NCBI GenBank assembly: GCA_001938485.1
Contig: MQRK01168236.1
Coordinates: 1 to 64,000, forward strand
Direction of reading: 5' to 3'
DNA: 64,000 nt
Source: Girardia tigrina
Taxonomy: Eukaryota
Part shown: piece by piece, positions 5,858 to 61,377 of the stretch
Position numbering within the stretch: position 1 is the stretch's first letter
Layout of the letters: each line of letters opens with the position of its first letter
Translations under genes and position numbers: made by a program
Notes under the pieces: model-generated
Told to the model about the DNA's origin: nothing
The model's database searches: none
The model's input: the letters and a program-made list of their open reading frames with translations, nothing else

Positions 5858-7820
5858 TAAGGCCCACAATTTACCGCAGCCTGCAGAATTTAGTGGATTT
5901 TAGAGAAAAAAACTCCATGTCGTGGAATTACCCTACCAGTGCTAAAAATAGTAGTGCATTTTTTTAAAAAAAATATTGAAGAAATGTATTAAATAGCTAA
6001 TTTTGTGGCAGTAATTAATAATTACTTTTTAATTTCCGATATGGAAATTATTGAAATATTAGTGTTCGGATTATTCACAGAACTTAAAAAGTAATTGTAT
6101 GCCATATTTTATTTCGTTAAGTAATTCAAGCTGATGTGACTACATTTTGGAGTGCGTTACAGGATAGACTACCTTGATTAGCAGCACTTGCTACAGTTTA
6201 CATTTTGTAAAAATAGACTCAAATAGTAAACAGAATGCGTCTATTTTTACTACAAAATGAATTATAAAAAGAACAAAATTATGATCAAGTCTTAACAATA
6301 ACACTTTAAATAAAAACTAATGATAAATAACCTTTATTCAGACATAAAGAACATAAATAAACTTTTCCTAATCACACGGTTAATAGTCATAATTCTGTTA
6401 ACTTTTCCATCAATAACTTTTTATTGATTTTCTTAATTTTCTTTTAATTATCATCTTATTGTAAATTATAATTATTCATCGTGACATTTATTTATCATAA
6501 AAATCGAGAATAAAAAGATCAAAATGATTGCGGATGGAATCAGTCTTTTTTGAGAGTTACAAAAGTTTGTTTGGCAACATTCTGTATTGATGTGGAACCT
6601 TCGAAAGATATCACACGTTACTGGGTAACAGTTTCTGATGGCTGATTCTTTAACGATAGACGCCGTGCATGATTTACAAAGACTCGATTTACCGCTTGCG
6701 GAGAATGAGTCGTAACAATCAACAAACAGAATTGATAAAATTTGATTTCAGACCACTGTAATACTCAGTTTCAAATGGATGTTCTTGAGCTCAACTAAAC
6801 AGTCCATCCAATCCAAATTACATTCTCGTTCTCAACCCTCTCAAGCAGAGAATCAATTGTGATTGTTTTAGAAGAAATCTTTCGATTGAAAGTCATCTCA
6901 TTATTCCACCTAATCTTTTATTTGATATCCTTCTATTTAATTTAGCCAGCATCTTTTTCAAATAAAATTGAATTCAACGTTCGTTTTGTTTGTTAACAAA
7001 ATATTGTTTTCAGTTGATTCTGTTTAATTTTCTTTTCTTGAAGAGGATGTGTTTGATTAATATGAAACTTGTTTACTGTCTTTATTTAATTGATGCAACG
7101 TTTTTNNNNNNNNNNNNNNNNNNNNNNNNNNNNNNNNNNNNNNNNNNNNNNNNNNNNNNNNNNNNNNNNNNNNNGAACACCAACAACCACACTTCACTAA
7201 ATACAAAAGGTACCAAAAATACACAGGACTCCCTATGTAAAAAGGAAAAAACCAATCACACCAAGGCCTTGTACAAAAACAAAAGAAAGAAAATCACATA
7301 CACACATAACCAAAAAAAATAAAGAATCAGTAGGGCACTACACATTTCACTACCGATCTCTTCTGTTGATGTGTAACGTTCTTTCATAAATTATGAATTG
7401 GTGTGAAATAAAAGCATTTAATTAGATAATAATAACATTTAAATTAAATTCATTTTTAACAATTTGATATCATTTTTATTATTTTGGGTTTTTATTAAGA
7501 AATGATTAAAATTATAATTTTTAATTAATATTTTTAGAAATTAAATATTTTAAAAAAATTTAGAAAAAATGTTCGAATACTCATCATAAAAGTAGAAATA
7601 ACAAAACGAATTAGAACAATGTACAATTGTGAAATATCTTCTGAGAGTTGTAATGACTCTAATTGTGACAAATAAAAAATCAAATGAAAATGATCTCAAC
7701 GTTCTTAACAGTTATTTTACTTGTATTATTATTTGTTTGTACATGTTTCAGGGAGACACACAATATGCCGCTGTATGCCGTGGAATTTATCTTTTTTTTG
7801 CCGCCTAATCGTGGGCCCTA
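5858..7820. mobile_element. Non-autonomous hAT element with 8-bp TSD
   Basis: TIRs TAAGGCCCACAATT (5858) and AATCGTGGGCCCTA (to 7820). Perfect flanking TSD ACGATTAC at 5850-5857 and 7821-7828. Internal hAT dimerisation-like fragment DVTTFWSALQDRLP*LAALATVYI at about 6130-6205. Spans an N gap. Confidence 0.85.
7430..7710 (+). mobile_element. Partial LTR (family A, 3' half) nested in the hAT element
   Basis: Aligns by eye to 36600-36900 and ends GTTCTTAACA. The start is approximate. Confidence 0.7.
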
Positions 7821-9834: not shown

Positions 9835-10280
9835 TTTTAAGAACATCAATTTGACTTTTCATATTTTTATTCACACAACAATATGGATTGTCCTTAAGAC
9901 ATTCTTTGTCAAAGCTTTCGTACGATTGCATTCTAAACTAAATTGATTAATGAATTAATTCGTATTATTTTTAGCAAACGGAGACATAAATAATTTATTA
10001 AAATATGTACTCAAAACTTATTGGATAGAAATTAAAATTATTAAATTATTATTAAGATTATTAATTATTTAAAAAATATTAATTTGATTTATTTATTAAA
10101 AATGGTAAAAATTAATTAACTTATTTAAAATTTTACGATTATTTGAATTTAAAAATAAATTTAAATATTACATATTTTTAGATTATAAGAATTCAAATAT
10201 TAATCATCCATCTGGGTAGGAGAGACACAATTATAAATCAACATGCAACAGTAAAACACAAAACATCAAACATTCAAAAT
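9835..10280 (-). mobile_element. LTR family A copy (reverse orientation)
   Basis: Reverse complement contains TCTCCTACCCAGATGGA and the 3' block ATGCAATCGTACGAAAGCTTT...GTTCTTAAAA. Confidence 0.75.
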
Positions 10281-11792
10281 ATAATATTATCTTTTTTGGA
10301 TGATTCTTTCGAAAAATTAATTTATTCGAAAAAATAGATTATACCTTGGTTTCAGATTTATGAATAAGAGTACATAAGAGTACAATTTTATCAGTACAAT
10401 TTTAGCAAATAATATATTTAGCATAAATTATAAATTCATATTACATTGTCGTCTTTATTATATTTTATTTTATAATATTTCGTAGAATAACGAATTTGTT
10501 GTTTTTAAAAAGGTCAAGAAATGGAGGATACTGATGATCACCAAATATTAGAAAAAATAATTAAAAATAAGAAAGATAAATGAAAGTGATAAGGTTTAAA
10601 AGGAGATAAGACAGACTGCTTTTTGTTTCAACATCATGGTCATCTGCTAAATTTGCAAATTCACATTGAAAGTCTTTGAAAAGTTTAATCTGCAGTTTAT
10701 TTTATTTCATTTTTTATAAAATTTATTTGATCATTTTGTGGACCAAAGTTTGGGAAGCACTGATCTAGCCAGTGATTAAACAAGAAAACGAAACGAAATT
10801 TTTGTCAAACATTGTTAATGCAGAAGACGAAAGAAATTTTCTGATAGATTTTCTATATGAAATTTATTATTGAAGATTGTTAGTAAATCCGAAAGATCGA
10901 GTTGTCGTTGTCTAATCGATATTCAATTCGTCACAGAAGAGAATTTTTGGCAAACTTTCTCCTTAAACATTTTGACTCGGTTTTAGTGATTGACTGTGGG
11001 TACAAAGAATATAACCCGGTTCCTGTGTTTGAAGATTTTCATTTATTAAAAAACTTGCAGGCGGCCCTCTCCAAATTTCTACTCTAACAAGGGTGATTTA
11101 GTTATTGAAAGAACCTTTAAGTAAAAACAAATTGTTAGTTCTTCTTACTCTTTCAACGTATAAGAAGTCGGTCATCGTATGTTTCAGATGAAATTTATCA
11201 AAGATTTGTCCTTACTTAACGAAACATTTTTATTGTTAAACACAAAATCTTCATTTCAAGCACTTTTTTAAAAATCTTTTCATAAAGAATAATAATAATA
11301 GTTTTTTTAAAGTATAAATTTTTGTGATTAAAATTATTTTTATTTTTAGTTACCCGGTAACCTTCCGTTTTAATGAATGAGTACTATTAAAACAAAAAGT
11401 AATAGTAATTCAAAAATTAATCAACATAAAAATACTGGTTTTCTATTAAAATATAATTTCATTACCGGATGTTGTGATTTCTATTTCTTTTCTCTTTTTT
11501 TTCCTTTTATTATGTCAACCCACATAACTTCCTTACCAGTCAAACGAATACGTGTCACTTTGTATTTATTCTCCATAACAAGTTATTTATTTATTTTAAT
11601 TTTTGTCTGCAAAAAATTTTGTATTAAGAAAATCATCATTTATTTTCATCCCTAAAATTGGATAAATGTAATATTTATCATAAAATCAGTAAAAATTACC
11701 TTTCGAATTCAGAACTAATATTTTTGTTATCAACATTCTTTTCTTTTTTTATTATAATTATTAATTTATGATTATTTATATAATTTTATTAT

Positions 11793-12485
11793 TGTATGTT
11801 GTGTTTGATATTTTAAATCCATTAGGATTGTGTTTCTCCCACCCAGATGGAGGATTGACATTTTCAATGTTGTGAACCATTGGATTATTCAAACAATTTC
11901 AAAAATGTAAATAACAACTTTAAAATTAAATTAATATATTTTAATCAATGAATATTATAAGAATTTTCCATATTGAAAATCCAAAAAATTGATAAACTTT
12001 TATTTTTATTACACAATCAAATAATGTGCGTCTAAAATTAATTACTCTGATTGATTTAAACAATCTCAGGAGTTTTTTTATATATTCAGGATCCTTGATA
12101 TAATATGATTTTGATATAAATAATTATATGTATTTTAATTTATAAATATATAGTAATTAATTATTCTCAAAAAAATATTATAATATTTGAATCAAGTTAT
12201 TTTAAATTTATTTAAATATTTTAATAGTGTATTATAAAGTAAAGATTTATTTAATCATAAATAATATATTTAAAAGGAATTGAAATACTTTTGAAAATAA
12301 TAATAAAATATTTAAGTAAGGAATTGTAATTTATATTTCTTCAAATAATTAGAAGTTTATATTAGAATTAAAATTTATCAATCAAGAACGATGTCTAACT
12401 ATGAAAGTTTTGTGGAGAATTGTCCTGGAGACAACTCGAGTTCTGATGTCAATAAATGTATTGGAATATATATGTGTTCTTAATA
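11793..12485 (+). mobile_element. LTR family A copy
   Basis: Contains TTCTCCCACCCAGATGGA (about 11835) and the 3' block ATGTCTAACTATGAAAG...GTTCTTAATA. The 5' boundary is uncertain. Confidence 0.75.
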
Positions 12486-14314
12486 ATATTAATAGAAAGT
12501 AAATTAGTTCGTAATTTCAGATTTCTATGGATGTGTATTTTATATTTTATTAATTATATTTTATACTTACTTAATTAACATATTTATATTATTATTTATT
12601 TTATTACGCTTCTAAATATATATATAAATTATAAATTAAATAATGATTCGTCTGATTCAGATTCTTTTAAAATTAATATGAACTAAAAGTCTTTGTTTAT
12701 TAATTATAATCTCAAGTTATTTGACAATTTTTTCATATATATACACCGATAATGTGTTACAATTTAACCAGTCATCCAAGGTTTGCAATGAGAACCGTTT
12801 CTTTGATACATATAGCCACATTTCAACTGCATTCTTGTAGCCATTTTTAAAAATAACTTCAGGAAATTAAACAACATTGAGGAGAAAAAATTGCTTTGAC
12901 AGAGTAAGTTTCTTGGAAAGTTTTATGTGAATGACGATTGTTATCGTGATTCTGCATTGATGAATTTGAATTTTCAATCATCTCAAAAAAAATTTTATTT
13001 TTAAAAAAAAAGTATTCATATCACCAAAATTCTGTTTCATATATTTTTAAAAAATTTCTAACGGAAATATTTTATTTAGATTAACAAACGCGTGTAAAAT
13101 ATTATGTACACAAAAATAACTGGTTTAAATTTATTTAACTTAATTTTCTTTTTAATAATTTATATGAAAAGTTTTACTTTTAAAAATTAATGTAGTGTCA
13201 AAATTTTTAAATTTCATATTTTAATCACTAACAACATCGATAAGTCAGTGCAATGTTTCACCTGCAAAGTGACTGAAGATTCAACTGAGAAAAACTAACT
13301 GAGCATCACCATATCCGAAACACGACTCATCTCCAGAAGAAGTCTTCCAGAAGAAGTCTATGATATCTCATTTCCCTTTTCCTTTCACTCATATATGAAA
13401 TTTTATAGTTATTTTTATTTTACTTTAGTTTCTCATTAATATTTATTATTTTTATAAATTTTCCAAAAACTGTTAATTTTGAATAATAATTTCCCAACAT
13501 TTATTATTTATTATTGCATCCATTATTATGGAATAATTATGTACAGAAATATTTTATTATCCTTAAAAGTTTTTAATTCATTAAAAAAACATTTTTTTTT
13601 AATTTACTTCTCAAATTTTTGATACTTGTTTTAAAAAATTTAATAATACTTTTTAATGTTTATTTAAATCTCAAAATATTTATAAATTTCGTAGAAAAAC
13701 GAATTTTTTGTTTTTAAAAAAGGTCAAAAAATGGAGTATACTGATGACCACCAAATATTAGAAAAAAATAATTAAAAATAAGAAAGATAAGAAAGATAAA
13801 TGAAAGTGATTGGGTTATAAAGGAGATAAGACGGACTAATTTTTTGTTTCAACATCATGGTCATCTGCTCAATTTGCAAATACATGTTGAAAGTCTTTGA
13901 GAAGTTTAATCTGCAGCTTCATCATGAAGCAACCGAGAATAGATTCATTAAAGAAACAAATATAAACTTCCAATGCTTTTAAATATTTTCCTCCGTTATT
14001 AAAGGAAAGCAATGGTATATATGAACGGATAGTTAATGTTGTGAGGAATATTTTAAATTTGGTATGTTGAGTTTAGTATTGGAAAATTGATATTTTGGAT
14101 GTTCATGATGAATAGTTATTTGAGCATAATTTGCATTTTAAATTATAACATAAGATTTTAAAAATCTTTAAAAATATTAAATCGTTTAAAATTTGAATAA
14201 AAATAATTTTTAACTTATTTTTAAATTAATTAAATAAATGTTTTTCTTCAAATAAAATCATTTTTAAAATTAAATTAATTTTTAGATAAAATTATTACCA
14301 AAATTATAAAAGTA

Positions 14315-15772
14315 CCGGCATTTTCTGTTTTCAAAAATAGGCGCATGCTCCTATTTTTGGGGACAAAAAACTGATTTTTTGCTTCCATTTGAATTGATCA
14401 AAAAATTGATCATAAGAGTCAGATAACAATAACTGTGTAAGCATTCATTATAGCTGTGATGAGTAAATGTATAAAAAATTTAATTTTTATTAATTAAGAC
14501 ATTCTTTTTCCTTATTTAATATATAATTGAATTTATTTTTTATATAAAATGGAATTTCGAGGTAAAATGGCAGTTTCCAAAAATAAGCACATGTGCCTAT
14601 TTTTGGGGACAAAGTGGAACACCTAAAAACATAAAAACTACCGTGTTTCCCCGATAGTAAGACACCCCCGATTGTAAGACGTATCGGGAGTTTCAGAAGG
14701 GTCAGCTAATATAAGCCGTACCCCGAAAGTAAGACATATGTCTTACTTTCGGGGAAACACGGGGGGATTTGCCTACAGTGACGTGTGGTACAAAGAGTGG
14801 GGCTGGGGGTGCGGGCCGCACCCTGGGGTGGGGTGCCAGGCCAGTGCCTTCCCCCTCCGACTGAAGAGACAGCGCCGTTTTGATCAGTCTGCCGACAGGT
14901 GTCACTGGCTCTGTGTCCTCCCGGAAAAAGGTCAGTGCTGGTCATACAGAGAGAGACCAAGGAGGGGGAGCGGATGTGTGAAGAGATTCTCTGCAGCTCT
15001 TATTTTAACCGCAAGATGCAGCTGAGGAGGACTACAAGTCCAAACATACCGGGCTGTGTGGGCTTACAGTTCTCCTCTGCTGGAGCAGCAATAATGTTTT
15101 CCGTGGTTCAAGGACTATCTGTGTGTGGAAATCAATGACTACATTGAAAACCGAATGGAGAGAAATGTACATGGGAACTTTGTGAAGCCCAGACTGTCAG
15201 AGATTGTTAACTGGGTAAAGAATTCTTGGAATAAGATCACTAACACCTGCGTTGCAAATGCACTGCGAGCTGGCTACCTGGAAAAAGCCTGCTCATTTCA
15301 GGACAGTGCCGTTGCTACCCATGAGAAATATGGGCCAATGATTCGGCAAGAAATGTCTTCCCGAGAGTCCCAAGAAAATCCACAGGAACCTAAGAGTGCG
15401 GATGTTTATGATGATATCCCGAAGAATGATGACATGGTTGTCATGGAATAAATCTGTTTTATCTTCCAGTATTCCCCTGTTCGTTCTTACCATTTTTCAT
15501 TGTTCTACATGTTATGCAATGTTGTAACAGACATTCTTGGCACTTCCTTTTATTAACCTGTTTTGTGGTGAATACAATACTATTCAGGTTGTTAATAAAT
15601 GTTAATTTTATGGTTAAAACAAAAAATTCGACAATTTTTTCCCAATATAAGACATACCCCGAAAGTTAGACATAGTGGGGCTTTTAGGGATAAAAAGAAA
15701 GTAAGACAATGTCTTACTTTCGGGGAAACACGGTAAATACAAGCGCATGCGCTTATTTACGGAAAATCCCGG
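14315..15772. mobile_element. pogo/Tc1-mariner-superfamily MITE (TA TSD)
   Basis: TA|CCGGCATTTTCTGT...ACGGAAAATCCCGG|TA, with subterminal AAATA(G/A)GCGCATG repeats at both ends. Confidence 0.8.
14641..15733 (+). mobile_element. pogo-like deletion derivative with near-perfect TIRs
   Basis: TA|CCGTGTTTCCCCGATAGTAAGACA...TGTCTTACTTTCGGGGAAACACGG|TA (23/24 TIR match). Internal DDE_1 C-terminal fragment GNFVKPRLSEIVNWVKNSWNKITNTCVANALRAGYL (15125-15451). Confidence 0.9.
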
Positions 15773-16639
15773 TAGAATTTTAAAAATAAAATTTGAAAAT
15801 CATTTCAAATAAAAATTTGTTCGAATTTATTAAGGAGACATTAACAAAAGTTAATCAACTTAGAAAGATGTCAAATTATGAAAGTTTTGCTGAGAAATGT
15901 TCCAATGACAATTCAAATTGTGATGAAAATAAAGTTGTGAAAACCCATATTGGTGTTCTTAATAAATGTGATGTAAGGAAAGAACTTGTATAGAAAAGTA
16001 TTCACATCAATATAATATTTGTTTCTACAACTAAATTTTTTAAATATGTACAACTTAGAATCGGAAAAGTCAAGAAGTATTATAATGCAGAAGATATGAA
16101 TATGTTTGGACATAGCATACATTAATGCAAAATATGAAGATTGATGTCCATAACATTATTTTTTTTACAGTTTCACTGCATTATTCACAAATAAATACTT
16201 TCACCTAATGTTATGAAATTTTAAAATTCCATGGACATAGTCATTCACAGTAACGCTACGAATCGCAAAACATTCTGAACATTCTTAAGTAAAGTTGATG
16301 CAAAATATAGAAACATGTTGTCTTTCTATGAAGTAGGGTATCTTAATTAGCTTTTATTGTTGAGGTTATTGGCAGATCATCTCAAAACATAAAAGACAAT
16401 GCTAAAAAACGAAAGGAAGAGTTTTATTTATAGAAATTTAAAGTTCACAGTTAAAAATATAGTTATTTACTTTAAAAATTTATTATTTTCTCAGATCAAA
16501 GCAATGATTAAAAATACAAAACAAATATTAAAAATCAAGTTATTCCGTGATGCATTATATTTTTAGAAAGAAAATTTTTAAATGTATGAAAATCCATGTA
16601 AATTGTAACTAACAAGTACCCATCATCGTTTATAGAATT

Positions 16640-20754: not shown

Positions 20755-21210
20755 GTTTAATATTTTGAAAATATAATTTGATTAAAGCTTTTTTATGTAA
20801 TTATTGGACATGTTTCGATGTTTACATACATCATCATCAGCAACTTTTAATACAATTTTAATAGATACATTTACTTTAAAAGGCCTATTACGAATTAAAT
20901 ATTATTATTTATTAAAGTGTTCTAGGGTAATAATGGCAAAAATATTTTAATTAAAAATTTTAAGTATTGAAATAACCTTACTTTGCCCATTCTGAATGTT
21001 AATTGATGGGTTGTAGTGTCTTATTAGTAGAGATTCACAAAACTGTCGTTCGTAATGTGAATCAAATCCCTTTCGTAGAACAGAAAACTCATCTTTTGAA
21101 ATGGATGAGGTTCTATCCTTACAACATAACCAATGATCAAGAACCTTACTCGAACGACTCATTTGCGAGTGCTCGCTAATCCGGGTTTTCAGATGACGAT
21201 TTGTCTATCC
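20755..21210 (-). mobile_element. Penelope-like element 3' end (GIY-YIG endonuclease C-terminal half plus pLTR)
   Basis: IG*TNRHLKTRISEHSQMSRSSKVLDHW...F.VL....ERQFCESLLIRHYNPSINIQ, i.e. the GxT...R..EH...E...I....P.+N GIY-YIG signature. Confidence 0.85.
20803..20844 (-). ncRNA. Minimal type I hammerhead ribozyme (Penelope-associated), apparently intact
   Basis: Minus strand reads GUUG-CUGAUGA-U-GAUGU(augua.a)ACAUC-GAAA-CAUG-UC^CAAU. It has the core CUGAUGA/GAAA, a 5-bp stem II, a palindromic stem III ACAUGU, a GUC cleavage triplet and stem I UUG/CAA. Confidence 0.85.
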
Positions 21211-21412: not shown

Positions 21413-24400
21413 TGTTGGGTTCTTGATCAAAATTATAATTCATTAACACCAAATTTTATTTTTTAATTATAATTGCTTAGAAAACTTTTGATTTTAAATA
21501 TTTCCTTATTTTAAAAATTCTTTATAAAAATTAAATGTTTCAAAAATTTTAAGAGTGAGTCTGTCCTTCACATTCCCCGGTTTTTTGAAATTTTTTAAAT
21601 TTTTCAACATTTCGTATTATTTGTTTATCATTTGTATCCTTCAGCCTATAGCTCCTATCATGAATCTTTTCTATGATTTCATATGGTCCCTCAAAATCTG
21701 TCTTTGCATTTCGTTCTTATTTCCTTCTGTATCCAGACCATATCTTCAACTTTGTATACTCTTTTGGTCTCATTTCCTTTCAGGATGTTCTTTTCTTTTA
21801 TTATTTGTCTTGTATTATCTCGGTCTATTTTGCTTCCACTGTACAACTGTTGTCTGTCTATTTTCTTACTAAACACCACTTCCGCTGGAATGCATCCCAT
21901 TATTTTTTGTTTTGTTGCGTTTTATACGAATTCCACTTCTGGTAATATATGTGCCCAACTGATGGCATTCCTTTCTATTAAACTAGCTTGAATGAATTCT
22001 TGAATGGTCCTGAATTGTCTTTCGATTATTTCATTTGTATTGTGGTGGTATGGACTGGAGAAAATTATTTTAACGCCTTTATTCTCCAACATTTCTCTAA
22101 CTTTTTTTGCCTCGAAACTCTTTCCACAATCAACAAGTATCTTCTTTTGTCCACCAAATTTTAATATCCATTTTTGTAATATTGTTTGTACAATTGTGTC
22201 TTTTGATTGCCGTCAAGCTGATGTACTTGCTAAAGTGATCTATCATTCTGAGAATGTATCTTTCACTTCTTACTGTCTCATGCCACGGTCATATATATCT
22301 ATATAAACCTTTTCAAATATTTCTGACGCTGTTATTTTAAAGTTTTCTTCCTTTGTCTTCGTGATCATTGTCTTTGTTTGTTGGCACTCTATACATGTTC
22401 CGACTACCTCCTTTACTGTTTTCTTTTCTTTTTCCATATCAAACTGGTCCCTTAGATATTCATATACTTTTTCTTCTCCTATATGACACAATAATCTATG
22501 TGTCTGTATGATTAAATCGTTCCGTTTTTCTTTTGCTATCCATTCTTTTTGACCTGCTCTTACTGGGATCCTTGTAGTCACTGCTAACAATCTAGTCTTA
22601 TTCTGACCCTTTTCAGCTTCTTCATGTTCCATTTGACACTGGGTACACGTGTCGCAATTTTGTCTGGATAGCATATCCGCGTTGTTGTGTAGTTCTCCTT
22701 TCCTGTATTTTATTTCTATATCTAAACTGCTCAAGTAATTCATCCACGTTTGGAATTGAGCTATTAATGGTTTCTTTGTATGAAACATGAACGTTATAAC
22801 TTTATGTTCCGTTCTCAGTTTAAATTTTTTCCCGTACAAGTAATGATTGAAATGTTGGCAGAAGTAAAAAATTGCCAAAAGTTCTTTTCTTGTTATGCAA
22901 TATCATTTTTCGTGTGCTGACATAGAATTTGATCCATATGCTATTACTTGCTCCTAGTCTGATTCAACAATCTGCGATAATACCGCCCCTATGCTGTCAA
23001 AACTAGCGTCTGTATCTAGAATAAACTGTCTCTCGAAATTTGGAAAAGTCAATATATATCCGTTATCAATGCTTTGTTCATGTCCTGAAAAGCTATTTCA
23101 CATGTATCTGTCCAAATTAATTTTTCTTTATTCGAGCCATACATTCCTTCCAACATTTTAGTTTTCTTCGCATATCCATTTATGAACCTTCTGTAGTAAT
23201 TGCAAATTCCTAGAAAACTTCTTAAATTTTTTATACATGTGGGTCTTTGAAAATTCTCTATTGCTGCTATTTTTCCGGGTCTGTCTGTATCCTTTTATCA
23301 TTTATAACGTGTCCTAAAAATTTTACATCTGTCGTAATATTTTACATTTCGTTGGTTTGATTCATAATCCTGTCTCCTTTATTCTTCCAAATAATTCTTT
23401 GACTACGTTATAATGTTCTTCCTTTGTACTTGTTGCTATTAATATGTCTTCCAGATAAACTGATGCTCCCTTCTTTATCGGTTTTAATACTTTGTTTATT
23501 AGTTCCTGAAATATTCCTGGGGCTGCTGCTATCCCGAAAGGCATCCGTTTAAAACAGAATTGTCCTGATTTAGTGGAAAACGCCGTTTTTTCCTGTGATT
23601 CTTTGTCCAATTCTACCTGGTAGTACGCGTTTCCTAAGTCTATTGTGCTGAAATATTTGGTTCCATATAGCCTATCCATCATTTCCGCTATATTTGGTAT
23701 GGGGAATGCCTGTCTCTTTGTAATTAGGTTTAACTGTCTGAAATCTAGACACAGTCTGATTTCATCCTTGTCTTTTTTCCAAACGCATACTATTGGTGTA
23801 TTCCATTGTGAATTACATGGCTTTATTATTCCATTTTCCTCTAGATTTTTGATTGCTTCATCAAGTTTGTCCTCTAAGTGCACTGGCTACCTTCTCGGTT
23901 TTATGTTTATAGGTCCCCTGTTGTTTCTATTCTGTGTCGTAACTAGTTCCTACAGCCGATATCCCAATCGTTCGCCAGGAATATGCTTTGATATTGGTGA
24001 ATTATTTCTTCTAGGGCTTTATCATTTCGCATATCGATCATTTTCAATGCTTCCTTTCCTCATTCTTCGTCTGTGATTCCTTTTCCAAACTTTGCCTCGA
24101 TTTTGCATATGTTAATTTTACTCGTATCCTGTTGTTTATCTTATTTCCATTGTAGCTCTATTCCGAATTCTTTCATTAATCGCATGCCTTCAATCATGGC
24201 TGGTCTTAAATTATTGACTATTATAAATCTTTTTTTTCTATATTATCTCGCTCTTCCCGGTATTCTTCATTCTCCATCATCGCGATCTGTCTTCCTCTTT
24301 CGAATCCTCTTCTGTAGTCGTCTGAGTTCCGGTTTCCTGAGCTTTTCATTTGGGCACCTGAGAATTGTCGGCTATCACTTTGGGTTCTCCTTTGATAATC

Positions 24401-25377
24401 AGTTCTTTCTTGATATCGTTTATTCAAATTCGTTTAACATTCTTCAGCTCTATGTCCTGGATTGTTACATCTTTCACATCTTACTTTTTTCCATTCTCAT
24501 CGCACATGACCTTCTCCACATGCATGGCACATGATCTTCTTCTGACTTTTAGATTCATAACTTTTATGTCCTACTTCCTTACAGTTCCAACATGTGATAT
24601 TGTTCTGCATAGTAGATCGTCTAACAAAGGAATCTCTTTTCCTCGTCATGTTTCTTGTTGCCATTGGTGTGCCTGTTTTGATCACATCTCTATATGTTGG
24701 TCATATTGCGTGTACCGCCTTTTCCATTCTCCGGACTTCGTCTACTTTCTTGATGACTTCCTTCACTTCTGTTAATTCTTTCACTTCTCTAAATCTGATT
24801 TCTTTCATCACGTCACTATCTTTTGACCCGTGAATCAGAAGGCATTTCTCTACCTCCGTCTCTGTCCACTCATGTTTCATCAATTTTGCCGCCAACTTTT
24901 TTGCTTTAACGAAGAATTCTTCCACTGATTCTCCAGATCTCTCGAAGTTTACCACCTCCATCAAATTCTCCATTAATGTGCTTTTCGTCTGGAAAGCTTG
25001 TCGTAGACGGGCTTCATATCCCTTCACTTCGGGACCCACACTTTCGTATATTGTTACGAATTCGTGTGACAGTAAACCAATTACCAATATCTTTAGCATA
25101 CTTTCCGATACTTTGGCCACTTTGCGCAAGCCGAAATGAATGTTTCAACATTATCTTGTAGCGTAAATTTATCTGGTATGAGCCTCGAAATTAGTTGTTT
25201 GCTGGCGATGGTCGACATGTTGGGTTCTTGATCAAAATTATAATTTATTAATACCAAATTTTATTTTTTACTTATAATTGCTTAGAAAACTTTTGATTTT
25301 AAATATTTCCTTATTTTAAAAATTATTTATAAAAATTAATTGTTTCAAAAATTTTAAGAGTGAGCCCGTCCTTTACC
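21413..25377 (-). mobile_element. Ty3/Gypsy LTR retrotransposon, internally deleted and pseudogenised, with both LTRs
   Basis: 160-bp LTRs at 21413-21572 and 25218-25377 (about 9 differences by eye) and a TATC TSD. PBS-like TGTCGACCATCGCC follows the 5' LTR; PPT-like AAAAAACCGGGGAA precedes the 3' LTR. Contains gag with zinc knuckles (CWNCKEVGH, CHACGEGH), RT (RLCLDFRQLN, MPFG, YLED instead of YxDD), RNase H (LDTDAS, TEHK, NADMLSR) and integrase H2C2 plus a partial core. Confidence 0.95.
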
Positions 25378-26295: not shown

Positions 26296-26716
26296 TGTGA
26301 GGTATATTTTTGAATGGTGTTTATTGTGTGTTGTTTGGTATGTTGTTTTAGGATTGTGTTTCTCCCACCCCGATGGAAGATTGATATTTTAAATATTTTA
26401 AAACGTCGGGTTGTTTAATGAATTATTAAAATTTAAATAATCACTTTAAAATTAAACTAATATTTCATAAATAATATTTTAATAATATTTTCTTAAAATA
26501 AATAACAATTATTTTAAATTTAAAGTATAAATTATTTTTGTGATAATTAAATTGTAATTAAAATTTGTTTGAATAATAAGACGTTAAAGAATATTATTAA
26601 ATATTATCAATCAATAACAATGATGAGCTACGCAAGTTTTACGGAGAATTGTTCTAGTGACAATTCAAATTGTGATGCAAATAAATGTAAAGAAAATACA
26701 ATTAATTTTCTTAATA
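26296..26716 (+). mobile_element. Solo LTR (family A) with 5-bp TSD, inserted in the Penelope GIY-YIG region
   Basis: TGTGAGGTATATTTT...TTCTTAATA. TSD ACAAT at 26291-26295 and 26717-26721. Confidence 0.9.
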
Positions 26717-27039
26717 ACAATTAAGTCGATCGAGTAAGGTTCTTGATCATTGGCTACATTGTAAAAATAGAATCTCTTCTGTTTTAAAGAATGAGTTTTC
26801 TGTTTCACAGAAAGGCTATCATTTACATTGTGAGCAACAGTTCTGTGAATCATTATTGATAAGACACTACAACCATTTATTAATATTCAAAATCGGCAAA
26901 ATTTTAATTCTTAAAATTCTTATTAAAAATAAATAAAAGATATTGTCATTAATACCCAATAAAATTCTAAACAAGTTAATATTGACTTATAAAATCTCCT
27001 ATTAAATAACATTTTATTATCTTACCCAGTACATTATAA

Positions 27040-31145: not shown

Positions 31146-31559
31146 AAAATGCAACACACACAATTTTATCAAAATAACGTTCGTTGAGTCATTTCAGTCG
31201 GTTTACATTTATTATTATAATGCATAATGCTTAAAATTCTTGCCTTTACTTCTGTTTCTAAAATTTTTAATCCACTATTTTAAGTTATATTGATTTAATC
31301 AAACCATGTCACATTCTCAAAATATTTAAACATTAAAATTGAAAAACTAAAAATCCCCTATTTAAATATATCTCATAAAAAAATCCATTTTAACTGAGGA
31401 AACTAAAATGTTATAAAAGGATAATTAACAGTATCAATATGAGGTTTACAACATTTATTAATATCACAAGCGCATTCACTATTTGACATTTTCTTGATCG
31501 ATATATTTCTGAATTCATACTAATTATTTTCAATAAATGAAAATCTTTGAATAAAAATT

Positions 31560-31834
31560 ATTAATTACAAAGAATTTAATTGGTTGAAATTAAATCTAAA
31601 CATTTTAAAAAAAAGAACATATTAAATTAATATATTAAAATTTTAAATTACATTAAAAAATAAATAATACATTCAAAAATTATTTTAAATCTTTTTNNNN
31701 NNNNNNNAAATTAAATTATTTTTAATTAGTAAGAATCAAAGAAAATATCAATCATCCATCTGTGTAGGAGAGGCACAATCCGAATCAACATACAACATGC
31801 ACAATATCAACACACAATTCAAAACATTCCTCAC
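31560..31834 (-). mobile_element. LTR family A, 5' part (reverse orientation)
   Basis: Reverse complement begins TGTGAGGAATGTTTTGAATT and includes CTCTCCTACACAGATGGA. Confidence 0.75.
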
Positions 31835-33631
31835 AAAAATAATAAAATTATAAAAGAATAAATAAAGTATTCATATTAAAAGTCTGATTCATGTTCGTTT
31901 CAAGAATGAAAAGTAAGAAAAGGTTGTGACTGTCGTAAAAAGACAATATGTTTCAATAATTAAGATATATTAAATTCATTTTAAGTTAAAAATTTTCAAT
32001 AAATTTCTAAAATATATTAAAAATTATTTATGAAGTCGTTATTAAATTTAAGTTTATTCTAACATTTTAATTCACTAAAATAAATGTAAGCGGATTTTGG
32101 AAAAATTTTATGAAAAACTTCCGTTTGAAGCTTTTATGTAAATGTCTCGAAAGTTATCAGTCGTATTTTGTCTTAATAAATGCCTCCTGAATAACAAAAA
32201 AAATTTTCCTCATTTTGTTTTGTAAGTATAAAACTTGTGTAGCGATCTCAAGTATTTAATTAAAAATTTTAGTTTCATTTTTTATTAGTTTATACTTAAT
32301 TGTTTATACTTTTAAACGATAACAAATTTTATGTATTATCAAATATGTTTAAAATCTTTAATTTTAATATTATATTTTATTATTCTTTAATTTTTCAAGC
32401 AATACTTGATAAATATTTATTTTTGATCGATTATTCTTAATTCATTTTAATTATTTTTTTATTAATAAATATCTAAATAAATATTAATTGCGAGAATTTT
32501 TGGAAACTCTTTTAAATTTTTGAATTAAACAAAACATTTGAAATTAATATTAAAGTATAAAAGTAAAAAAATATAAATGTATTGTAATGACGATAAAATG
32601 TTGTATAAAGTTAGAATATTAATAATAAGTAAAAATCAATATTTTAGATAAAATTTAAAGTAATAAGATTGGTAAATAAAATAGTTTTGAAAACGAATTA
32701 AATATGAGATCTTAAGAATAATTAAACAGAATTTAAAAAAATTTTTATACAGTTAATACAATATGAAAATAAATATCATAATAAATATTAAAAATTAAAG
32801 AAGTTTAATAAAATAATCATTAAAAAAATACAATATTTAAAAAATACAAAATTAATATATAAAATATTTTATAATAGTTTATTTTATAATTTAAATAGTT
32901 TAAATGAAAAAAAGTTTTATAAAATTAAATACAATACAAAATTTCGAAAATAATTAATTGACATATATTTACAATTATTTAGATATTATTTTTAGATATT
33001 ACAGAAAATTAAAGTATGCAAATACAATATTTTAGTACACTAGAAAATATGTATAACAACATACTGTTTCATGACAAAGTACCTTATATACACTGTATCA
33101 CATGTCCTTTACTTAAAAAAACTAATGATAAAATACAAATTTATATATTAATTTATTAATACTTTGAAATACATAGAAATATAAAATCCATTGTAATTAT
33201 TAATGTAATTAATAATTGAATTATTAATGGGATCCTTGAAGCTGATGCTGCAAAGTGAAATATTTATTAAAATATTAAACATGCATAGGAAAAAAGCGAA
33301 ATTCGTAGTACATTTCATATTAAGTTTCTGTAAGTTATGTAGTCTATTGAACATGGATCAACGCAAAAGGAATCTAAGTAGTAGTGTAAAAAAATTATAG
33401 TAAACATTGTGCTTTTAACTCCTGTGAGAAGTGTTCCTGTTGATATGAATAGAAAGAAGCAGTTAATATCTGCACCAATAATAATTTGGACTATGGATAA
33501 AAGAACAAATAATCCGCAAGTTTTTTTATGGATTTGAATCGTTTTTGAAGCGGAAAAAATCGTAGAAATTTTTCATTCTAATTAAATATATACTTGAAAA
33601 TTTTTATATTTATCTTTTCAGTCTATGATTA

Positions 33632-35439: not shown

Positions 35440-37900
35440 AAGCGAAAATAAAATTTTTACGCCATATAATAAATTCTCAGGGTATCACAACAGACCAGAC
35501 CAAAATTGATACGATTGTTAATTTTGAGCGACCCAAGTGTGTTACAAATTTAAGAAGTTTTTTAGGGCTATGTAACTATTATAGGAAGTTTATTAAAGAC
35601 TAATCCAAATACTCCAAGAGTTTAGAGAGCTTGTGTGGACAGAATAAAGAAATATTATTGTCACACCGCCTTCCAGAAAATGAAGAATGCACTTTCAAAA
35701 ACTCCAGTGTTAGCTTATCCGGATTTCAACAAAGAATTCATATTGGATACGGACGCGAGTTTCGACTCCATAGGAGTAGTTCTGTCTCAGAAAGACAAAG
35801 ATGTACATGAGAGAGTGATAGCTTATGGAATCACACTCAATGAGCAAATATGAAGTAGGGTATTGTATTACACGAAAGGAATTGTTGACCATTTACTACT
35901 TTACCGAACATTTTAAGCATTATCTGTATGGTTAGAGATTCACGTTAAGAACAGATCATAAGGCACTTACATTTATGATGACGACAAAAAAACCAATCAC
36001 GCAACAGTTCCAAATGTGGATTAATTTACTGAGAAGTTTAGACATGGACATATAGTAGCGAAAAGTATCCATCACAACAATGCTGAATTTTTGTCACGAA
36101 TAAACTGTGAAAACTGCGTCCAATGCCAAATGAAATAAGAAGATGCTAAACGAGGAAAATGGAAGACAGAAATCCTCACTCTTATGACAAAATCAAACGG
36201 ACAACAATGGCCATATAACAATGAAGAAATAAAAGAGGTAACTAAAACGCTTCAAATAGGTCATTCAAAATAATTTAAGATTGAAAATGGAATAATTCTA
36301 ACAAAAGAAGGTAGAATATGGATTCCAGAAGAAAGAAGGGCAGATTTTATTATGGAAATACACAAGCTGTTATGTTACGCAGGAAGTAAATTGGTGTATG
36401 TGAGGAATATTTTAAATTGTATGAATGTGTAAATGTATGGATGCTGTATGTTGATTTAAGTATGTTGAATTTAGAATGGTGATTCTCCCACCCAGATGGA
36501 AATTGGTATTTTTTTATTAAGTTTAAAGTGATTGGCTATTCGAACATAATTAAAATAATCATTTTATAAGTTCATATCTTTAATTTTAGAATTAAAATTA
36601 AGTTTAATAATTTTTAGTAAAATTTAAATTAAATGCATTTTTAATAATTTGATGACATTTTTATTATTTTAGGATTTATTGAAAAATGGTAAAAATTAAT
36701 ATTTTTAATTAATATTTTTTAGAGGTTAAATATTTTAAAAAATAATTTAGAAAAATTGTTCGAATAATCATGATTAAAAACAGAAATAAGAAAACCAATT
36801 AGAACGATGGCAAACGATGAAAGACCTTCTGAGAGTCTTAATGACTCCAAATGTAATTGCAATAAAGATTTAAACGAGACTTGTTTAAATGTTCTTAATA
36901 GTATATGACTACATAAAAGCAGTTTTCGATATAAGATGAGTGAAAACACAAAACAGATCGTCGAAGCGTGTGAAATATGCCGAAAACGAAAAACCATGAC
37001 AACAAGATCGAAAGAAATAACGCTAAAACAAAGTGCAGAAGTTCCATTTGAAAATATTTTTATAGATTTTTGTGGACCGTTCAAACAGGTGTATCAAGGG
37101 AAAAAATATATATTGGCGATTATTGACCAATTGAGCCGATAAATATGATTACATGCCGTAGCTAAACAGGATGAACAGACAATAACAAACGTATTGTTTA
37201 GAAACTGGATTTTAAAATTTGGTGTACCTCGCACCATACATTTAGAATGTGGTAAGGCATTCCAATCAAAGGTGATGAAACAACTATCAGAACATTACAA
37301 AATCAATTTACAATTCTCGAGTCCACACCATCATACCACTAATGGGTTGATAGAAAAGCAGTTTAGAACTGTTCTGGATTACATAACGACATCAATTAAC
37401 GATAAACGGGGAAAACTTGGGTAGATATTTTACCGGACATCAAATATACCTTAAACGGTACTGTTCAAGAGTCTATTGGAATGAGCCCTGCAGAAGTTGT
37501 TTTTGGATTACGAATTAATAGACAATAGAATGAAACGAATAAAATAATCAAATACAGAGAGGAAATTTTAGAGACAGTTAAGAACAACCAAAAGAAAATT
37601 CGATACAATAACGATAGAACTTATCAAAGAGAATTCCAAGTGGGGAAATACGTGTTAAGCAAAGTGGGAGGAAATACTACAAAAGATGCTAATCGATACG
37701 AGGGACCTTTGAAAATCCTAAAAATGACTCGATAGAAGTTATATATTGGAAGGGGAAAACGGTGAAAAGGTTATAAGAAATATAGTTTGGCTGAAGCCTT
37801 TTAAAGGAGGGGAATGTGAGATATAATTAATAACTTAATAATAATTTTTAAATAAACTAAATTAAATTAAAAATAATAATGGTTCAAGAATACTTTTAAT
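35440..37900 (+). mobile_element. Gypsy pol remnant (RT end, RNase H, integrase) with PPT and start of 3' LTR
   Basis: LRSFLGLCNYYRKFI, PVLAYPDFNKEFILDTDASF, TDHKAL, HKLLC(H)AG...CEIC, IFIDFCGPF, FSSPHHHTTNGLIEKQFRT and a Y.GP motif. PPT AAAGGAGGGGAA is followed by TGTGAG at 37815. Confidence 0.92.
36399..36900 (+). mobile_element. Solo LTR (family A) inserted in the integrase zinc-binding domain
   Basis: TGTGAGGAATATTTT...GTTCTTAATA with TSD GTGTA/GTATA (4/5). The pol frame rejoins as ...AGSKLVY|DYIK... Confidence 0.9.
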
Positions 37901-43764: not shown

Positions 43765-43865
43765 TGTGTTTAGAAATGTTTTTCTTCCTACCATGATGGA
43801 AAATTGGTATTTTGAATGTTCATGATGAATAGTTATTCGAGCATAGTTTGTATTTTATATTACAA
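43765..43865 (+). mobile_element. Internal fragment of LTR family A
   Basis: GGAAAATTGGTATTTTGAATGTTCATGATGAATAGTTATTCGAGCATA matches about 14080-14130. Confidence 0.7.
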
Positions 43866-50184: not shown

Positions 50185-50585
50185 CGTGATAATATATATA
50201 TATATTAAAAATTATCACAATTATAATAATTCTCTCCTTTTTTACTTATAATTAAAATATAAATTAATAATTAGATAAATAATTAAATATAGTCTATTTT
50301 AAGTTAATTATTACAAACTAATTATTTATTTTAAAATTAACAAACCTTATTATGACATATATTCGGTCAATCACTCAAAATATATCCACCAATGAGTAAC
50401 GGTTAAAATAAATTTTACATTAATAAAAATTATAATAAATGCGAAATTGACAATTAATTAATGTTGTTTAAATAAACGAATTTTAGTAGAAATATAAAAA
50501 TATGTGTAATTTCACGAAAAATAAATTTTTAGTGTCAATTATCTTATTTTCTAATTATTTTCCTTAAATTTAAAATAAAAGACGA

Positions 50586-51098
50586 TGTGAGGAATATTTT
50601 AAATTTGATATATTGAAATTGGTTTGTTGAATTTTGTATGTTGAGTTTAGTATTTGGAAATGCATTTCTCCCACCCAGGTGGGAAATTGATATTTTAGAT
50701 GTTCACGATAAATAATTATTCGAGTATAATTTGCATTTTAAAGTACAACATAAGATATTTAAAAACTTTAAAAATATTAAATCGTTTCAAATTTTCATAT
50801 TAAAATTTAAATAAAGTAAATAGTTTTAACTAAGTTTTGAATTAAATAAATGTTCTTTCTTTCCATAAAATTAATATGTAATTAAAATTATTACTAAAAT
50901 TACAAATTTTAACTTTAAAAATAAAATCTGAAAATAATGAAAAATTTGTTCAAATAGTTGTTTATTAAAAAACATTAACTAAAAGTTATCAATTTAGAAC
51001 GATGTCGAATTACGCAAGTTTTACTGAGAGTTGTCTAAAAGACAATTCTAATTGTATTGAAAATAAAAGTTTGAAAACCCATGTTGGTGTTCTTAATA
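50586..51098 (+). mobile_element. 5' LTR (family A) of a Gypsy provirus, followed directly by a PBS
   Basis: TGTGAGGAATATTTT...GGTGTTCTTAATA, then TGGCGACACACGACC at 51099. Confidence 0.92.
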
Positions 51099-52727
51099 TG
51101 GCGACACACGACCACGTGATTCCGAACATCAGAAGTACGGAGATTTTTTATTGATCAGAAACAAAAGTTGAGACATTCATAACGAGCTTTAACAGGTATA
51201 CGAAGATAATGGGATTTTCAGAGGAGAGGAAAATCTTATTAGCAACACTATATATGACTCCGGATGTCATAATAAATATGAAGCAGCGGCAGGTGAAACA
51301 TGTGAAGAGAAACTAAGATCCGCATTTTCAAAGGAAAAATCTATCCTGGATCTAATGAAGGAACTGGTATAAATGAGAATTGGATCCAGCGATCCAACAG
51401 TAATATTTAGAAAGGCTGACGAAATTATTGAAAAGTTAATTGAGAAAAAGTTGGGTAAAAAGGAACAATTAAATTTGGTCTACGCTAATCTGATAGATAA
51501 CGAGAACGTACAGAAAAAAATAGCTGTTAGAGGTGTAAAGAAATCTGAAGAGATTGAAGACATTCAAACGAGAATATTCGAATATGATAAAAAGAAAAGA
51601 AATGCTCCTGTAGCGGCATATAACACAAAAAGAGAAAATGAATAGAGAACAGTGGAAAATAAAAAAAAGAACACCAAGACCACAGAACGAGAAACTCGAA
51701 GAACAAGAAACAAGAAGAAATTTTAAAGTTCAAAAAACTACCTGTTGGGAATGCCAAGAAGAAGGGCATGTTAGAAGAGAGTGCCCAAACGTGAAGTGTA
51801 GTCATTGTAATGGAAAAGGGTATTTAAGAAAACAGTGTTATGAAAACCCTAATAGGTTTAGGGAGCGTGATCAATGGAAAAGGGATAATGGAAATAATCG
51901 ATGGAACAACAGACAAAATTAGTCGAATCAACGGTATAGAGAACGGCCAACATACACGAATAGGAAATACCCAGTAGCAGAAGTGGACGAACTAGATGAT
52001 GAATTGTACATAAGAGAAGACTCTAGAAAAGGAGAGTATTCTGAAGGAACGTATAGAAGAGAAGATGGCAAAAGACTGGAATAACCCGTGGGTAACAGAA
52101 AATTCAGAAATGATCAGGGAAACGAGGACGCACGATCACAGGCAGAAGTGATCAGTGTGCTACAATAGGAACTCAATGTTGGTGTATGATTGATTGTATG
52201 TATGAATGTGTCTGTGATTGTATGTTTGATGATGTGTTTGAAAATATTCCTCTGGAGATGTGTAGATTAGATAATGAACCTGAAGAAGACGATGATATAT
52301 GTGCTAATATGGATATAGAAAATGAGAAAAAATAAAAAAAAGGAATGCTGAAGATGTATTGATATTACCGAAGTTTAACATAAATTATAAAGAATTGAAA
52401 GGTAGACCAAGTATAGAGTTCCAAATAAAGAATAAAAATGTCAAATGCCTGTTAGATACAGGAGCTCGAGTCAACGTTATTAAAGCAGAGATAATTAAAG
52501 ATATGAAAGATGTCAAGATCAAAGAAACTAAAAGACGAATACATTGTGCGAATGATTCAGAACTAATAAACTATGGGATTGTTCAACTTAAAGTGATAAT
52601 TGAAAGAATGCAGAAAACAGTGGATTTCTTTGTGGTCAAAGACTTAGATCCAGAAATGATTGCAGGAATAGATTTCTTGGACAAATTCAGGATTAAGTTA
52701 AAGAGAGAACCATCAAATATTATTTAA
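51002..52727 (+). pseudogene. Gypsy gag (two zinc knuckles) and aspartic protease, truncated and frameshifted
   Basis: EIFY*SETKVETFITSFNRY gag N-terminus, knuckles CWECQEEGHVRREC and CSHCNGKGYLRKQC, protease CLLDTGARVN...IAGIDFL. Ends at about 52727. Confidence 0.9.
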
Positions 52728-59107: not shown

Positions 59108-61377
59108 CAGTCAGCTCCGCTTTAGTTGATAGCTTGTAGACTAATTAAAATTATCCACTAAAGCGGACTATCCCATTCACACATATGTATACATGTACAT
59201 GTACATTGTCTGCTATTAGCCAGCTTAATGCTGTTTCCACCTCCTGTGACGAGGACACTGCAGACAAAGGAGGCACATGTTTTTTTTGTTTTTGTTTTTT
59301 ATTTTTTATTTTTTTTTCTTTTTTACTTCATGCCTTTTTATCTATATTTTTGAACCCATATACACTACATGCACATGTACACATATGTACATAAACACAC
59401 ATTCATGCAATAAATTTTAATAGAACAGTTGTAGTCCACAGTGAAATGTAGGAACAAGTTTATTAATGTTTCTTGAAGTAGTCCAGAATAGAACTTTGCT
59501 TTGCAGTTTTCTGTTCGACTTTTATTCTGCATCTGATACACATCATCATAGTTGTTGCAGCCATTTGCTTCCAGAAATTTCTGAATGACATCAATGGCCT
59601 GCAGAGTCATTGGCAGGGTTGGTGGTGCGCAAACGGTTGCTGGTTCGGAGTTCATGTTCATATCATCCGGTTTGTAAATGATAGCCTCATCGAGTGTTAT
59701 GTCTGAGTTTGCATCGACAAGTTGATATCGTTGCGTTGTTTCCATCGTTCTAACAACCCTGTTGATGCTATGAAGTTCACAAAGTTCGCGCGTCGAAAAC
59801 AGTTCGCAATCGTTGTTGTTTCAATCCTATTTCATCCATGTATGACAATTTGTAGCGCATTAAGAAGAGAAAGCTTTCGTGCTATCTGAGCTGCAGTACC
59901 TTCGATTACTAAAATGAGTTGACGAAGCATGAGCAACTTGTAGTGCCTTTTGAAGTTCGCAATGATTTCCATATCGAGCGGTTGAATCAACGACGTTGTA
60001 TTTGGTGGCAGGAAGGTTAGTTTAATGTTTGTTAGCTTAATATCGGTTTTGTAAGATGCACAGTTGTTGCAGAATAACAGAATGTTTCTATTTAGGAGCT
60101 TCATCGAACGAGCAACCTTCAGTAACCACTTATACCACAGGTCAGACACCATCCAAGCATTGCGGTTGGCTTCATACATAACTGGGAAGTTCTTAACATT
60201 TTGAAACATCGTGGATTCTGACTCTTTCCGATTACAAACTGCTTTAACTTTTCTGATCCATCCATGTTCGCAGCAAGAAGAATAGTTAATTTCTCTTTGC
60301 AGATCTTAGCACCGGACACAGATGAATTCTTGAACGCTAATATTATATCTGGAAGAACTTTCCAGTATATCCCGGTCTCATCAGCATGCATTGCATGGAT
60401 GAACATCTTTCAGCAGATCTGGAAGCACATCAGTGATCCATCGTTCAGCACTACAGTTATCCGCATCCTGTTTCTTACCATGCTGTTTCATAAAGTTGGT
60501 ATCGTTGCGTTGTTTCCATCGTTCTAACAACCCTGTTGATGCTATGAAGTTCATTCTATTGATTCCAGGCTCCTTTGCAATCTGCTCTGCTTTAGATTTG
60601 AGAATTGGTTCACTTAATGGCAGCTGTCTACCTGATGCATAACTGAACCAATGCAACAAAGGCATTTTCTACGTCTGCCGCATGTCCAGCATGTTTTCGT
60701 TTCATGTTCGGATTTTTATTATTTTCCTATCAGTTAAAAGATTATCCTTGTTACTAGATATGCTAGATATTACAGCTTGTCCTACATCATATTTCTTAGC
60801 TATTGCCGTCTGTGTTTCTTTTTGCTCAATCAACTTAATAATTTCAACTTTTTGCTGCAGTGTCAACACTTTAACTTTTTTCTTATCCATAATTGAATTG
60901 TATTGAGCGAATGAATTTTGTGAAAATTATTTTTAATTTAATTTTGGCATATATTTGCAGTTAACTGCTGATTCAGTGCGGTTAACTGCTGATTCAGTGC
61001 GGTTAACTGCTGATTCAGTGCGGTTAACTGCTGATTCAGTGCAGTTAACTGCAAGCCACTGTAGTTGTTAGCAAGAGGTGAAGAGGTTAAATTCGTCACT
61101 GTTTCTCTGTGTGTATGAGAGAGTAGGATGTGTGGCTATCGTAGGCAATAAAATTTTGCCAATGTACTGACACTATTCACTAAAGCGGAGTAATTTATAA
61201 TAAGGTCAATAGCCTTGGTACTGTAGAAAATTATTCACGAATTATCCTCTTATCCGGTATTCGCTAAACCGGACATGTTTACCATTGATATCAATAACAA
61301 AAAAAGGGACCGAAGACTCTCTATTCACTATAGCGGATTATCCACTAAAGCTGTATCCGCTAAAGTGGAGCCGACTG
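59108..61377 (-). mobile_element. Near full-length Tigger/pogo transposon, transposase pseudogenised
   Basis: TIRs CAGTCAGCTCCGCTTTAG and CTAAAGTGGAGCCGACTG, with TA on the left. HTH-psq (MDKKKVKVLTLQQKVEII), CENP-B HTH (LLHWF...LPLSEPILKSKA...FIASTG), DDE domain (ADETG, NRNAWM, FLPPNTTSLIQPLD), split by frameshifts over about 60890-59480. Confidence 0.95.
60960..61052. repeat. 21-bp tandem repeat, about 4.4 copies, in the Tigger 5' UTR
   Basis: Unit GTTAACTGCTGATTCAGTGC(G/A). Confidence 0.95.

Follow-up and report, generated by a model that had tools for sequence, protein, structure and literature searches.

A gag reading frame that opens inside the LTR in Ty3/Gypsy elements of Girardia tigrina

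We analyzed a repeat-rich stretch of 64,000 nucleotides from Girardia tigrina (contig MQRK01168236.1), called the window here, which has 28.5% GC. It contains a decayed and truncated Ty3/Gypsy element of a family that we call A. The 5′ LTR of this element (50586..51098, + strand) is 513 bp long, with loose ends of contigs at 50585 and 51098. At 51098, 73 and 69 contigs from two sequencing runs depart from the window into unrelated flanks, and the same terminal motif closes the 3′ LTR of a relative on contig L001. The LTR is followed by a broken gag (51098..52168, +), which encodes a helical capsid and a zinc knuckle, and by a protease remnant of pol (52326..52719, +), where the element is cut off. 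A preliminary description of the window had given a TGA as the single break in gag. However, we found a stop at codon 51 (51152-51154), two frame shifts (near 51274 and at 51662-51678), more stops and the truncation near 52719. The window copy of the family A element is dead. In family A, the pol frame opens right after the gag stop with a Cys/Asp-rich, TG-rich low-complexity stretch (L001 1311-1370; window 52170-52240).

Family A LTRs are 410-510 bp long, and our census of their copies covers the 64-kb window. The U3-like part has a near-palindromic box that is conserved among family A copies (50669..50684, +). This box is GC-rich, lies ~70-85 nt into the LTRs and is perfect in the 50586 copy. 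Its counterparts occur near 11835, 26361, 36484 and 43785, and a 5′ fragment of a family A LTR is found at 43766-43865. The box is possibly a transcription-factor site. A candidate core promoter (50945..50995, +) would consist of a conserved AT-rich box ~45-55 nt 5′ of the ATG described next and an Inr-like ATCAAT 10-14 nt 5′ of it. Region 50500-51300 had no match in Rfam, and a search of viral contigs for relatives found none.

The end of the LTR encodes a leader of 32 codons in frame with gag (51002..51097, +). The preliminary description had placed an ATG about 95 nt before the LTR end in seven copies. We measured 97 nt from ATG 51002, the LTR limits being backed by contig departures and TSDs, and found all seven leader translations in the sequence exactly as they had been written. 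The context of this ATG is homologous among copies, and all 11 that were examined have a purine at −3. The frame was said to stay open to the LTR end in most copies, and it does so in five of the seven named ones, being closed in those with ATGs at 12391 and 7619. An eighth copy had been overlooked (ATG 31489, minus strand, 22 codons); its frame is open, for a total of six of eight. The proposed continuation of the frame across the LTR junction into gag is seen in the window element, and occurs without a break in relatives. One RNA-library contig covers 50944-51694, and thus the ATG, the junction and part of gag, but its source could be DNA, or it could have been joined across the repeated R.

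The other copies in the window are solo or orphan LTRs. One solo LTR (14040..15964, +; ATG 15868) has a perfect 5-bp TSD, and its frame stops 9 codons past the LTR. It is split by an insertion (14311-15775) that has inverted ends; a pogo/Tigger-type remnant (DDE_1, HTH_Tnp_Tc5) lies at 59832-60668, and a 21-nt unit forms four to five tandem copies at 60956-61060. A solo LTR of the P0032 subfamily (26296..26716, +; ATG 26620) also has a perfect 5-bp TSD, and one of the P0026 subfamily (36399..36900, +; ATG 36807) has a 5-bp TSD with one mismatch and sits in the integrase region of another element. In both, the frame stops 2 codons past the LTR. It stops after 6 codons in two minus-strand copies, one of the P0003/P0021 subfamily (9835..10283; ATG 9931, matching P0003; 5′ boundary approximate) and the eighth copy, which belongs to the P0027 subfamily (31422..31835). 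The frame is closed at codon 31 in the copy at 11785..12485 (+; ATG 12391; 5′ boundary approximate) and at codon 19 in that at 7370..7710 (+; ATG 7619), which is related to the copy at 36399 and likewise belongs to the P0026 subfamily.

Solo LTRs had been proposed to donate a promoter, an ATG and an open frame to host sequence, which would seed chimeric proteins. Consistent with this proposal, five of the seven solo or orphan copies in the window have no stop in the frame up to the LTR end, gene callers have predicted LTR-flank ORFs elsewhere (P0014, 40 aa; P0031, 82 aa), and the frame of the L001 3′ LTR extends 22 codons to the contig end. However, the five open copies read out for only 2, 2, 6, 6 and 9 codons beyond the LTR end, the frame itself contains AATAAA, and no host gene was recognized beside any copy (40 of 71 ORFs scanned, and 4 more besides). 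Donation of an open frame to the flanks thus found no support in these copies, and we consider a donor role very unlikely. The database entries P0014 and P0031 are gene-caller products, and gene callers will go on predicting spurious LTR-flank proteins.

Searching with the window frame retrieved two uninterrupted Gag proteins that start with the leader. A full-length Gag profile, whose length range would have admitted a leaderless Gag, yielded eight family A clusters with Gags 40-95% identical to P0005. All eight representatives have an in-frame leader, whose last residue is Asn and which is followed by Met-Ala-Thr. The leader is 22-32 codons long from the homologous ATG, and some members have an additional upstream ATG. 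Of the 103 listed members of family A, the leader is found in 70; another 4 begin at the junction, and 29 do not match the junction pattern. Three clusters have 16 members, 15 of them listed. The unmatched members are mostly internal fragments, and P0019 and P0020 are unrelated members of clusters. P0039 is full length and has a leader without the junction Met. Two partial proteins were left out of the eight clusters: P0029, with a leader of 25 residues, and P0030, with one of 35. The database Gag proteins are gene-caller products, which speak to the open frame and not to its use. Gag has a zf-CCHC domain and, as predicted by AlphaFold, a helical domain at residues 53-201. The best fold matches of this domain are the dArc, copia and Ty3 capsids, all of them weak, with none at E ≤ 0.001. 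Residues 1-41 have a pLDDT below 50 and no confident structure.

Contig L001 carries the whole layout. Its gag ATG lies 67 nt inside the 5′ LTR, and its pol overlaps gag in another frame, has the Pfam order PR-RT-RH-IN and contains one break. A purine tract (PPT) precedes the 3′ LTR, and the 5′ and 3′ LTRs agree at 228 of 248 columns. The pol frame crosses the purine tract and has its stop in bases 1-5 of the 3′ LTR (L001 4473-4477; in the family B element described below, near 21568-21572, −). Because it runs this far, the internal region has no non-coding flanks.

A sister family, B, is represented in the window by a decayed Gypsy element (21413..25377, −) with LTRs of ~159 bp that are 95% alike. 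Its Gag is 30% identical to that of family A, and its pol has RT, RNase H and integrase in the Metaviridae order. In the window element, the 3′ LTR has the leader ATG (21443) but the 5′ LTR lacks it. We considered family B as a leaderless group, but relatives with a 10-codon LTR-encoded leader in three of three clusters rule this out. Among 41 listed family B members, 27 have the leader, 4 start at the junction and 10 are unmatched. In two of the three family B clusters (P0109-P0111; window 25216-25218, −), members encode either Ser or Ala at the second junction codon, so that the third base of the PBS-like motif of family B varies (TGT or TGG). We infer that a mismatch to the CCA end of the tRNA, re-copied from the primer in every cycle, could keep such a polymorphism. 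The sequence GATCAAGAA occurs at 21135, 26748 (−), 21428 (−), 25233 (−), 31499 (−), 34587 and 5697 (−). These sites are near family B LTR ends, just 5′ of one family A ATG, and within a third repeat, present at 21009-21165 and 26718-26874; the sequence is possibly a shared initiator.

The leader codons overlap several signals. AATAAA (51062..51067, +), likely the poly(A) signal, forms the codons Asn-Lys and lies 35-40 nt from the LTR end in 11 of 11 LTR copies examined. A GT-rich stretch and the integrase-recognition (att) end make up the last leader codons (51082..51098, +). The accessible part of PMC3601003 describes this arrangement in LTRs of animal Metaviridae, with AATAAA first, then a GT-rich stretch, then the terminal inverted repeat.

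A hairpin is predicted inside the leader (51027..51049, +), in the same register in all seven long-leader copies. It is stronger than shuffles in three of these seven; 90% of cells pair, versus 22-48% for slid versions, in a structure that was derived from the same sequences. Covariation in the hairpin was not above shuffles (162/500), and short-leader copies have a different fold. All seven copies use GAC for the Asp encoded in the stem. At 36807-36854 and 7619-7666, a 6-nt shortening can be read as the loss of 3 nt per hairpin arm, which keeps both the stem and the frame.

A second possible start lies at the junction (51098..51105, +), where an ATG arises from the final base of the LTR together with the TG that opens the PBS-like motif TGGCGAC. 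With A at −3 and G at +4, its context is stronger than that of the upstream ATG. The PBS-like sequence in common is only ~7 nt long, TGGCGAC. The junction ATG is present in every full-length cluster representative, but its conservation proves nothing, because the LTR end and the PBS-like motif force it.

The frame upstream of the junction is open more often than expected. Four equal-length leaders in the window have no stops (column shuffle, P 0.002-0.005, 3000 trials). We also simulated the evolution of random sequences along the Gag tree until they had diverged to the identity seen among the leaders (40,000 runs). All eight frames were open at the end of 0.7% of runs, and open with the ATG kept in ~0.003%; under the mildest scaling tried, these values were 16% and 2%. 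These frame nulls ignore indels and sites held by RNA or DNA signals, and the subfamilies are not independent. Sites held by such signals have a lower chance of gaining a stop than the simulations assume. By chance, an in-frame ATG at least 22 open codons upstream of an arbitrary point is expected in 1.2-1.7% of cases in LTR interiors and in 6% in the whole window; for 10 open codons, the values are 3.7-6% and 12%. Net leader lengths differ among subfamilies by whole codons (96, 93 and 66 nt), with compensating gaps in some leader alignments. In the 200 nt upstream, 13 of 74 gaps are multiples of 3, counted over 11 non-independent pairs in AT-rich alignments. The leader frame and its ATG are retained far beyond chance.

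The composition of the leader also follows the codon phase. T makes up 58% of third codon positions, versus 23% and 19% at the other two, with p<0.05 in five of six leaders and in none of five upstream controls. In nine related leaders, Cys occurs 27 times versus 5.9 expected (4.6-fold up) and Arg once versus 16.7, and Ile and Tyr are depleted. A Cys lies three residues before NK in seven of the eight family A clusters. Part of this residue bias may be driven by nucleotide composition.

The residues themselves appear loosely constrained. Leader identity between clusters averages 29%, versus 55% for the capsid. Many differences at third positions had been noted, but differences at codon positions 1, 2 and 3 number 52, 53 and 54 (6 pairs among the four equal-length copies). 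The pN/pS ratio is 0.67-0.75 versus a column-shuffle median of 0.85-0.87 (P 0.17-0.28), in a test on four decayed copies that has little power. Contrary to the idea that it varies like coding sequence, the family A leader does not vary as ordinary coding sequence does. The preliminary description had named conservation due to RNA structure or the poly(A) signal as an objection to a coding leader. This objection applies in part: the conserved residues lie on AATAAA, the GT-rich stretch, the att end and likely the hairpin.

These data bear on whether Gag starts only at the junction ATG, with the upstream frame a by-product, inherited from one ancestor, of the RNA and DNA constraints (hairpin, AATAAA, GT-rich stretch and att end). 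The even spread of substitutions and the unremarkable pN/pS are in keeping with this possibility, as are the fixed AATAAA spacing, the invariant GAC codon in the stem and the strong context of the junction ATG. Some retroviruses have AATAAA in U3, and if this were true here, the upstream ATG may lie upstream of the transcription start site. However, a junction-only start leaves unexplained the length changes by whole codons, the retention of the ATG over eight clusters, the codon-phase composition and the separate 10-codon leader of family B. The lack of covariation above shuffles and the different fold of short-leader copies also argue against the hairpin as the constraint. We regard a junction-only start as quite unlikely.

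The proposed Cys/Asn-rich leader, with a gag frame that begins within the LTR, holds at the level of the ORF, given its presence in eight of eight clusters and the avoidance of stops; as the start of the protein, the in-frame junction ATG competes with the upstream one. Our preferred reading, to which we give a probability of roughly three in four, is a compact Ty3/Gypsy lineage in which gag opens at the LTR ATG. Full-length RNA would likely be translated from there, giving a Gag with a tail of 22-32 residues that is rich in Cys, Asn, Ser and Asp and predicted to be disordered. Four observations underlie this reading: the limits of the LTR, a frame that is open in uninterrupted relatives, an ATG whose context is homologous among copies, and codons that coincide with AATAAA and the att end. 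Transcription would start ~10-15 nt 5′ of the ATG, at the Inr-like motif, in which case R and a very short U5 would be coding, as in Ty1. From the LTR ATG, the frame passes AATAAA, the end of the LTR and the primer-site motif before it enters the capsid gene. A scanning ribosome would reach the LTR ATG first, and a stop or shift behind it would cost Gag, so selection would act on the frame and little on the residues. Residue identity would be set mostly by the overlapping RNA and DNA signals, and leaky scanning may add a shorter Gag from the junction ATG. The R-U5 region is likely doubly used, for RNA and DNA signals and for a loosely constrained Gag tail.

A related possibility is that the upstream ATG is translated and the leader counts only as an open frame, a neutral linker that the protease removes or that is tolerated, while the main functional Gag starts at the junction. 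It overlaps our preferred reading, the sole difference being that the peptide has no role. The low conservation, the variable length (10-32 codons) and the predicted disorder fit a neutral linker, whereas the strong residue bias and the Cys before NK in most clusters do not. We consider a neutral linker a serious possibility, although at less than even odds.

A bolder proposal is that this Gypsy lineage is coding from wall to wall, with gag starting in the 5′ LTR and pol stopping in the 3′ LTR, and that leaky scanning yields two forms of Gag. The longer form would carry a Cys-rich tail whose codons overlap the poly(A) signal, the hairpin, the att end and the PBS, and this tail would act as a lipid- or metal-binding substitute for a matrix domain. 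This proposal is speculative, and we think it unlikely.

Among known systems, the elements resemble Metaviridae in the PR-RT-RH-IN order of pol, the overlapping gag and pol frames, the gag with capsid and nucleocapsid (a zinc knuckle and weak Arc/Ty3-like capsid matches), the two LTRs and PPT of L001, and the 5-bp TSDs at solo copies. A search with the RT found generic RT clusters only. The ICTV profile of Metaviridae describes non-coding LTRs, a U5 of 75-250 nt and a PBS of 18 nt (PMC7879559). By contrast, in the present elements an open frame covers the LTR end, U5 would be shorter than ~25 nt, the PBS-like sequence spans ~7 nt and pol stops in the 3′ LTR. The coding LTR is a variant feature that gives no grounds for exclusion from Metaviridae. 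According to the accessible part of PMC4974528, the 5′ PBS segment of Ty3 adjoins the 5′ UTR. Tf1/sushi elements prime themselves with an 11-nt PBS complement at the RNA 5′ end, as stated in the accessible part of PMC7175516. Self-priming of this type found no support here: the longest contiguous pairing to the PBS in four LTRs is 6-7 nt.

In the openly accessible literature, we found no Gypsy element with an LTR-internal gag start, although repeat databases (Repbase, GyDB), subscription papers and supplements may describe one. In its accessible part, PMC3286476 reports only a one-base overlap of PBS and LTR, and the corresponding parts of PMC4580426, PMC10974842, PMC4202319 and PMC5408684 contain no Gypsy gag start in an LTR. 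Annotation that places the gag start 3′ of the PBS would lose the N-terminal part of the protein.

The closest parallel in layout is Ty1 of Saccharomyces cerevisiae, which, according to the accessible parts of PMC5454406 and PMC4974528, has a 53-nt UTR and a PBS at nt 95-104, inside GAG. To judge from these parts, in both systems a short 5′ UTR leads into a gag ORF that contains the PBS, and the coding sequence doubles as RNA signals. They differ in that the domain order here is that of Gypsy, the integrase-before-RT order of Ty1/copia (Pseudoviridae) being absent from L001, and in the AATAAA within the frame and the second in-frame ATG at the junction. Moreover, the LTR-encoded stretch of family A is 22-32 codons long, versus ~14 codons before the PBS in Ty1 by our own arithmetic from the same sources. 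The Ty1 layout, with the primer site within gag, is thus now found in Ty3/Gypsy elements of 11 subfamilies, a group whose LTRs are described as non-coding. In our preferred reading, one stretch would encode protein and at the same time provide the poly(A) signal, the integrase end and the primer site, under selection on its frame and not on its residues.
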